64,000 nucleotides of DNA, taken from assembly GCF_965641715.1 (NCBI RefSeq), contig NZ_OZ282453.1; one strand, written 5' to 3'. This DNA is from Escherichia coli. GTDB lineage: Bacteria; Pseudomonadota; Gammaproteobacteria; Enterobacterales; Enterobacteriaceae. Both the position numbers and the translations under genes were made by a program. Positions 34,782 through 34,856 of the stretch are shown here, piece by piece; position 1 is the first letter of the stretch; every line of letters starts with the position of its first letter. The notes under the pieces are model-generated. The model was not told the DNA's origin. It searched no databases and worked only from the letters and a program-made list of their open reading frames with translations.

Positions 34782-34856
34782 TGGAGCGGGTAGCGGGAAT
34801 CGAACCCGCATCATCAGCTTGGAAGGCTGAGGTAATAGCCATTATACGATACCCGC
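34782..34856 (-). tRNA. Phage-encoded tRNA, predicted tRNA-Gly (anticodon UCC), CCA end encoded
   Basis: Cloverleaf folded by hand: acceptor GCGGGTA/TACCCGC, anticodon stem TCAGC/GCTGA with loop CTTCCAA, T-arm GCGGG-TTCGATT-CCCGC, 3' CCA. Confidence 0.8.

Follow-up and report, generated by a model that had tools for sequence, protein, structure and literature searches.

The only tRNA gene called by ARAGORN in the 64-kb stretch of DNA analysed here (the window) is a tRNA-Gly with the anticodon tcc, located on the minus strand between the gene of a Q-like antiterminator and the lysis genes of a prophage (Table 1). Its 75-nt sequence, GCGGGTATCGTATAATGGCTATTACCTCAGCCTTCCAAGCTGATGATGCGGGTTCGATTCCCGCTACCCGCTCCA on the minus strand, matches the full model (1-71) of Rfam RF00005 with 65.6 bits (E = 5e-12; gathering score 29), contains a 7-nt anticodon loop, CUUCCAA, in which the anticodon starts at position 34, and ends in a CCA that is encoded in the DNA. 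A sequence-only reading had described a tRNA-Gly(UCC) of this length at these coordinates, with encoded CCA and the loop CTTCCAA, and ARAGORN and Rfam RF00005 both agree with it, the former accepting the fold and returning the isotype Gly(UCC). The identity set of E. coli GlyRS comprises G1:C72, C2:G71, G3:C70, the discriminator U73, C35 and C36. All these positions are present in the gene (GCGGGUA...UACCCGC-U-CCA), and the variant pair 6:67, discussed below, is not among them. By its sequence the gene can be placed among the bacterial tRNAs (RF00005) and, more specifically, with the UCC isoacceptor of tRNA-Gly. No second tRNA or pseudo-tRNA was detected beside it by an Rfam E-value scan of positions 34550-35150. 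As prophage cargo, an intact accessory tRNA-Gly(UCC) is common and ordinary, and genes of this kind have been annotated before.

The window is E. coli chromosome, and the Rfam families found in it are MicC, RalA, FnrS, McaS and sok RNA. A 26-bp direct repeat, situated in a PP-loop (ttcA-like) gene beside the integrase, bounds a lambdoid (lambda-like) prophage of ~45 kb at the ttcA (Rac) site. Because these att repeats flank the prophage, the tRNA gene, 19-26 kb from either prophage end, is internal to it and sits in the slot for accessory genes that separates Q from the lysis cassette. The late genes run on the minus strand in the order DUF1367, YbcO, Q-like antiterminator, AraC-family gene, tRNA, two holins and GH108 endolysin, followed beyond the endolysin by Nu1, terminase, portal, capsid and lambda-like tail genes; the earlier placement of the tRNA on the late-gene strand upstream of the holin is therefore correct, the holin ORF starting 456 nt downstream of it. 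The same order of Q, tRNA and lysis genes is found at four related loci (L001, L005, L006 and L007). The antiterminator itself, whose true start is probably internal to the ORF, weakly resembles Q21 (PDB 6p18, E = 0.013).

Several candidate expression signals surround the tRNA. A 50-nt block downstream of Q is conserved among phages with the same Q type and is followed by a strong terminator hairpin. The canonical Q cassette consists of Q, PR', a pause and a terminator (bioRxiv 10.1101/651190), and by analogy the segment 36140-36235 is probably the PR'/pause/tR' unit. Between the tRNA and the holins lie three hairpins resembling intrinsic terminators, the first and third of which are conserved in the related phage loci L005 and L002, where terminator counts exceed those of shuffled sequences. 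Promoter-like hexamers are found upstream of the tRNA in the window and, analogously, upstream of the first tRNA in L005 and L002; a dedicated tRNA promoter was rejected, as in all three sequences such hexamer matches are no more frequent than in shuffles. Taken together, the signals make Q-dependent read-through in the lytic cycle likely, with possible low expression in the lysogen that would be stopped before the lysis genes.

Three other regions of the prophage deserve mention. A hok/sok-type toxin-antitoxin locus (Rfam sok, 113 bits; Hok/Gef ORF of 70 aa) is encoded within it. Two overlapping AT-rich ORFs (310 and 184 aa; 34% GC) lie on the opposite strand and occupy the slot that in a related prophage is filled by DUF262 and AAA-ATPase genes, which makes them possible defence or accessory cargo; they have no PADLOC, Pfam or NCBIfam match, and assignment to a defence system was abandoned for want of support from any of the three. 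Finally, the 1.28-kb stretch between the endolysin and Nu1 contains no convincing gene. No Rz/Rz1 spanin genes were identified. The stretch is unannotated in the two genomes that carry it at 100% identity (EC416 and PEC41), and in phage SerU-LTIIb the equivalent slot is filled by the LT-IIb toxin genes.

Table 1. Features of the tRNA locus and of the surrounding prophage (window coordinates)
Feature	Position	Strand	Basis or remark
Direct repeat, 26 bp	8941-8966 and 53887-53912
Tail-chaperone T-like ORF	21920-21486	-	Phage_tail_T
Heptamer G GGA AAG, lambda-type -1 frameshift site	21926-21920	-	in frame, at the junction of the G-like and T-like ORFs
Tail-chaperone G-like ORF	22324-21902	-	Phage_TAC_2
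Stretch between endolysin and Nu1	31842-33118
Lysis cassette	33119..34326	-	Pfam, RM10740 annotation
GH108 endolysin	33673-33119	-	Pfam
3TM holin	33944-33666	-	Pfam
Phage_holin_8 ORF (first holin)	about 34326-33934	-	Pfam
Three intrinsic-terminator-like hairpins	34519-34500, 34477-34460, 34364-34349	-	window scan
Long RNA hairpin, about 34 bp, many G.U pairs	34581..34658	-	strand-specific, nearly invariant
Conserved 3' trailer	34659..34781	-	U-run 34663-34659
Trailer closing stem P1	34755-34749 with 34673-34667	-
Trailer hairpins inside P1	P1a 34747-34735, P2 34734-34705, P3 34700-34676	-
tRNA-Gly(UCC), cellular glyT type, U6:A67 acceptor pair	34782..34856	-	ARAGORN, Rfam, alignments
Encoded CCA	34784-34782	-
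RF00005 match	34785-34856	-	Rfam
Decayed tRNA-Thr(UGU) remnant (thrU-like 3' third and 3-nt spacer)	34857..34891	-	in-register alignment
Promoter-like TTGATA-16-TAGTAT	34971..34998	-	115 nt upstream of tRNA, 9/12 match
Inserted cassette, ~1.3 kb	about 36151-34860		homology break
AraC-family regulator, YdeO/GadX-like	35274..36077	-	Pfam HTH_AraC, HTH_18
Strong terminator hairpin just after Q	36163-36140	-
Conserved 50-nt block	36235-36186	-	alignment of post-Q regions
Q-like antiterminator	36261..36923	-	Pfam DUF1133 5.5e-102; Phage_antitermQ PF06530 3.9e-06
hok/sok-type locus	38173-38497	-	Rfam, Hok/Gef ORF
Two overlapping ORFs	38755-40238	+
Integrase	52576-53811

Kinship of the tRNA gene and the arrays to which it belongs

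Direct alignment of the tRNA-Gly(UCC) with glyT of E. coli K-12 gives 73 identical positions out of 75, and the two differences, C6->U and G67->A, amount to a single compensated acceptor-stem pair (C6:G67 -> U6:A67). With the tRNA-Gly of T4, to which that of T2 is identical, 65 of the 75 positions agree. The gene had been thought closer to the T4 type than to the host glyT, and these alignments reverse that order: the U6:A67 pair, common to the T4 and T2 tRNA-Gly, is its sole T4-like trait, whereas the anticodon stem, T-arm and D-loop length are all as in glyT, so that the idea of a T4-type phage tRNA distinct from host glyT is refuted by alignment and retains practically no probability. Nor is it the host gene, because in spite of near-identity to glyT it is located outside the tufB operon and therefore represents a glyT-type paralogue; among about 200 phage copies, none shows the host context, that is, a Tyr gene upstream or a Thr(GGU) gene downstream.

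None of the 100,044 species-representative genomes contains the exact 75-mer. The U6:A67 acceptor pair with the same D-arm is native to the tRNA-Gly(UCC) of Idiomarinaceae, SAR86 and other taxa, and the native gene of Idiomarinaceae, one compensated pair away, is as close as E. coli glyT. Given this tie at 73/75 and the lack of an exact match among the representatives, identification of a donor species by tRNA sequence was ruled out, and the donor is not nameable from the tRNA alone. As far as the sequence goes, the gene is of the very conserved gammaproteobacterial glyT type.

In the record of Escherichia phage SerU-LTIIb (KU052038) a 100% identical 75-mer bears the annotation tRNA-Gly, and at >=99% identity the gene is present in 268 complete E. 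coli records (~5% of complete genomes). A total of 6572 glyT-like places was counted in 5420 E. coli genomes, which therefore hold >1000 extra copies. Among 114 IMG/VR contigs retrieved with the 3' 59-mer of the tRNA, 111 carry the 75-mer. Throughout about 200 viral contigs the Gly gene is always the last one of a small array downstream of Q, the commonest array being Thr(UGU)-Gly(UCC), with Met-Lys-Thr-Gly, Met-Arg-Thr-Gly and others being rarer. Fuller arrays carry Lys(UUU), Arg(UCU) and Asn(GUU) tRNAs, and a solo tRNA-Gly is seen in about 12 of the 114 contigs. The array tRNA-Thr is 100% identical to host thrU, and the Thr-Gly pair resembles the thrU...glyT part of the host tufB operon with tyrU left out. 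The Thr-Gly prophage of an assembly labelled DH5alpha was considered as phi80, and this assignment was rejected because only two phage records share its 3' flank and neither is phi80.

A separate observation concerns the tRNA 5' of Thr-Gly, which switches its anticodon among close relatives (L009-L211, IMG/VR). The anticodons found there include Lys UUU, Arg UCU, Phe AAA, His GUG, Ser UGA and an ochre-suppressor-like UUA, in addition to unreadable loops. In SerU-LTIIb the tRNA-Arg(UCU) (L002, 1122-1197) differs from the tRNA-Thr(UGU) of the same phage by 3 nt including the anticodon. Such sequences suggest that anticodon switching occurs within phage tRNA arrays.

Like the lambdoid arrays, the copy in the window lies on the late strand between Q and the lysis cassette, but it stands alone instead of among two or more tandem tRNAs. 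As far as 36186, Q module included, the sequence is homologous to a Thr-Gly prophage; the homology is then lost and is picked up again at 34859, 3 nt short of the tRNA-Gly. The inserted cassette starts right after the post-Q terminator, has a GC content of 42% and encodes the AraC-family regulator, which scores 143.7 bits against NCBIfam YdeO (below the equivalog cut-off) and which may resemble the prophage-encoded Psr/PatE-type regulators of EHEC. The cassette and the tRNA are found together in 22 genomes, mostly porcine ETEC. At the position that other phages devote to the intact Thr-Gly pair, the last 35 nt upstream of the tRNA-Gly align in register with the 3' end of thrU and its spacer at 21 of 35 positions (60%; 8.6 expected), a number reached by none of 5000 shuffles (p < 2e-4). 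The upstream 76 nt as a whole give no alignment with thrU, and no functional tRNA was detected in 34857-34891 by the Rfam E-value scan. The homology break together with this remnant therefore indicates that the cassette truncated the tRNA-Thr, the leftover of which has decayed, and the solo tRNA-Gly accordingly derives from a Thr-Gly array. Judged from these alignments, the cassette is a replacement of the ancestral promoter and of the 5' part of the tRNA-Thr; the tRNA-Gly of the window lacks the ancestral upstream segment.

Conserved RNA structures 3' of the tRNA

The trailer that directly follows the tRNA is closed by the stem P1 (GGCACUG/CAGUGCU), which encloses three hairpins. It follows the U6:A67 tRNA in 107 of the 108 viral-contig loci. 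The four-stem model yields 94.9% paired cells as against <=56% in slid controls, a score obtained on the same sequences from which the model was derived, and 5 pairs show compensatory change, which is matched by 0/500 shuffles. MFE folding recovers these stems, but with unremarkable stability (z = -0.7), so that thermodynamic support was discarded and the structure of the trailer is supported by covariation. A second trailer family retains only the closing stem and the U-run. The arrays with the host-type C6:G67 tRNA-Gly (e.g. L128, L138 and L165 of IMG/VR) are followed by another conserved trailer, GTTAGAGTCTTTCAGTCTGCGATGATGGG..., likewise of structured appearance.

The trailer is followed by a long hairpin with a folding energy of -37.4 kcal/mol, for which z is -6.3 on the minus strand versus -2.0 on the plus strand. 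Its 93 occurrences comprise 37 distinct sequences with compensated pairs. It is present in 285 of 5426 E. coli genomes and is almost never annotated. Neither the trailer nor the hairpin has an Rfam match, and a literature search found no paper text containing the sequences of the tRNA, the trailer or the hairpin.

Terminator, processing site and released small RNA are candidate roles for the two elements. The hairpin might be an RNase III site that parts the tRNA precursor from the late mRNA, or it might gate entry into the lysis genes. Tentatively, and with a good deal less confidence than we place in the tRNA itself, the tRNA can be viewed as the head of an undescribed RNA module, in which a ~95-nt four-stem trailer of cloverleaf topology and the ~34-bp hairpin would be putative functional RNAs released on processing.

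Selection, codon supply and rival explanations

The 16 bases at the 5' end of the tRNA show 3 variants in 113 loci, compared with 22 variants in the 16 bases past the CCA, only positions not fixed by the search pattern being counted; across 108 loci, the 240-nt 3' flank exists in 67 different versions. Among related phage copies the acceptor pairs 5:68 and 6:67 do vary, and the changes are mostly compensated or wobble (C:G 49, U:G 5, U:A 114, U5:A68 22). Invariance of the tRNA-Gly while its flanks diverged indicates purifying selection and hence, as judged by sequence comparison, a functional tRNA rather than a dead passenger. Part of the invariance could reflect the recent spread of a single module, against which the divergent flanks argue.

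In E. coli, GGA codons are decoded by no tRNA other than tRNA-Gly(UCC), which is encoded by a single-copy gene and decodes GGG as well. In the late genes of the prophage GGA accounts for 12.9% and GGA+GGG for 37% of Gly codons, and in K-12 (57 annotated genes) for 6.7% and 17.5%, respectively (Fisher p = 7e-5 and 3e-17), the K-12 sample being rich in ribosomal genes and hence biased low for these codons. GGA makes up 23% of the Gly codons in the early and cargo genes of the prophage; the major capsid gene, with 5 GGR among 23 Gly codons, is not rich in GGA. The late genes of phage lambda, which has no tRNA, use GGA at 12.9% and GGA+GGG at 35.5%. As to the earlier proposal that the tRNA may supplement GGA decoding in the late genes, GGA is in excess over K-12, but the same usage in tRNA-less lambda means that codon usage does not discriminate, and it was dropped as specific support. 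Supplementation of GGA/GGG decoding is plausible nonetheless. During lytic growth the Q-modified RNA polymerase would start at PR' and continue across the AraC gene, the tRNA and the terminators beyond it. Host RNase P and the 3' processing enzymes would then release the tRNA, which, once charged by host GlyRS, would augment the single-copy host supply for GGA/GGG, codons whose frequency in lambdoid genes appears to be about double that in host genes. Low-level expression in the lysogen might start from the AraC promoter or the weak promoter-like site, and the three downstream terminators would keep such transcripts out of the lysis genes.

The reading that we prefer, with a probability of roughly 0.6, is that the gene is an intact, selectively maintained accessory tRNA of the glyT type, the last survivor of an array, which would supplement GGA/GGG decoding. 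Its strongest competitor, although an unlikely one, is that the gene is a recently captured cellular tRNA, carried along by a successful phage module without bringing any advantage. In favour of such a neutral passenger, lambda manages without the tRNA at equal GGA usage, the array is already half destroyed in the window, and no more than about 5% of complete E. coli genomes carry the module. The idea fits poorly with the constancy of the tRNA next to a trailer in 67 versions and a tRNA-Thr fragment reduced to 60% identity, with the compensated acceptor-stem changes among relatives, and with the persistence of the tRNA across different Q types and lysis cassettes.

Somewhat less likely again is a role in counter-defence, in which the phage copy would restore the tRNA-Gly (and, in fuller arrays, Thr, Lys, Arg and Asn tRNAs) hit by tRNA-targeting toxins of the host or of competitors. 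Known anticodon nucleases target tRNAs for Lys (PrrC, PARIS), Arg (colicin D) and Asn (colicin E5), and the fuller arrays do include Lys(UUU), Arg(UCU) and Asn(GUU) tRNAs, while the middle positions of the arrays change their anticodons rapidly. The anticodon stem-loop of the tRNA-Gly, however, is identical to that of host glyT and therefore offers no escape from an anticodon nuclease, the companion tRNA-Thr is likewise 100% thrU, and no nuclease of E. coli that is specific for tRNA-Gly(UCC) is known to us.

The gene may have been kept as DNA rather than as RNA, either as a conserved block that anchors the exchange of modules or as the relic of a former att site, and this we consider improbable. 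An anchor would explain why homology to the Thr-Gly prophage resumes just before the tRNA (34859) and why the same tRNA and trailer are joined to different Q and lysis genes, but a purely DNA role would not explain the compensated base-pair changes. The relic integration target, also put forward by the sequence-only reading, fails on the location of the att core in the ttcA-like gene, 19-26 kb away from the tRNA, and on the absence of both hallmarks of such tRNAs, partial duplication at a boundary and an adjacent integrase: no second copy of the tRNA 3' 25-mer with <=3 mismatches exists elsewhere in the window, and Pfam places no integrase next to the tRNA-Gly.

A lambda-type -1 frameshift heptamer, G GGA AAG, lies in frame at the junction of the tail-chaperone G-like and T-like ORFs. 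That the additional tRNA-Gly(UCC) serves to adjust frameshifting at this site, and thereby the G:GT tail-chaperone ratio, is very doubtful: GGGAAAG is in the right frame at the Phage_TAC_2/Phage_tail_T junction, its GGA is read by this tRNA species and some arrays add Lys(UUU), but lambda has the same G GGA AAG site without any tRNA, and the number of GGGAAAG occurrences in the window is at chance level.

Comparison with known systems

With regard to the presence of the tRNA, the analysis adds little, since identical genes are already in public phage and E. coli records and post-Q tRNAs are a known lambdoid trait. Its value is mostly corrective, the gene being a glyT-type and not a T4-type copy and the codon-usage argument being non-discriminating against lambda. 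In addition, the locus draws attention to two conserved RNA structures that lack annotation and that about 5% of complete E. coli genomes carry, and it provides a clean natural comparison for the study of selection on phage tRNAs, with an invariant tRNA-Gly beside a decayed, truncated tRNA-Thr.

For the trailer, and for the trailer only, analogues can be named in T4, which encodes two small stable RNAs (rnaC/rnaD, species 1 and 2) right after its last tRNA, and in 3'ETS-leuZ, a tRNA-trailer sponge RNA of E. coli. Like the trailer, these RNAs are structured, measure about 100-140 nt and are encoded immediately downstream of the final tRNA of a cluster; by analogy, the trailer may itself be of this kind, either a stable RNA or an sRNA sponge. 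Kinship of the trailer or hairpin to rnaC/rnaD was rejected, there being no sequence similarity. The T4/T2 tRNA-Gly(UCC) itself has the anticodon, the encoded CCA and the U6:A67 pair in common with the prophage copy, but it differs at 10 of 75 positions, is 74 nt long, has other anticodon-stem and T-stem pairs and, in T4, belongs to an 8-tRNA cluster of a virulent phage.

Use of the post-Q slot for tRNAs is widespread. Stx phages carry ileZ-argN-argO downstream of Q. For SfI, Sf6, ST64T, PS3 and P21, tRNAs downstream of Q have been documented together with a rare-codon rationale (PMC3636060). All these phages share with the window the slot and the proposed role, that is, the supply of tRNAs for codons rare in the host and commoner in the phage; the published post-Q tRNAs are Asn/Thr or Ile/Arg, whereas that of the window is Gly(UCC), and no discussion of Gly(UCC) as a terminal member with a conserved trailer was found in the literature searched.

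Close counterparts are SerU-LTIIb and the lambdoid prophages of E. coli, in which the tRNA-Gly has the same position upstream of the holins and a 3' flank of the same type, but is paired with an upstream tRNA (Arg-Gly and Thr-Gly), whereas the window copy stands alone behind the AraC cassette. The cellular counterpart is E. coli glyT (tRNA-Gly2, UCC) of the thrU-tyrU-glyT-thrT-tufB operon, which shares with the prophage copy the length, the anticodon stem-loop, the D-arm, the T-arm, the encoded CCA and the GlyRS identity positions. The two genes differ in the pair 6:67, C:G in glyT and U:A in the prophage copy, and in location, glyT residing in the tufB operon and the prophage copy between Q and the holins, without tyrU or thrT as neighbours.
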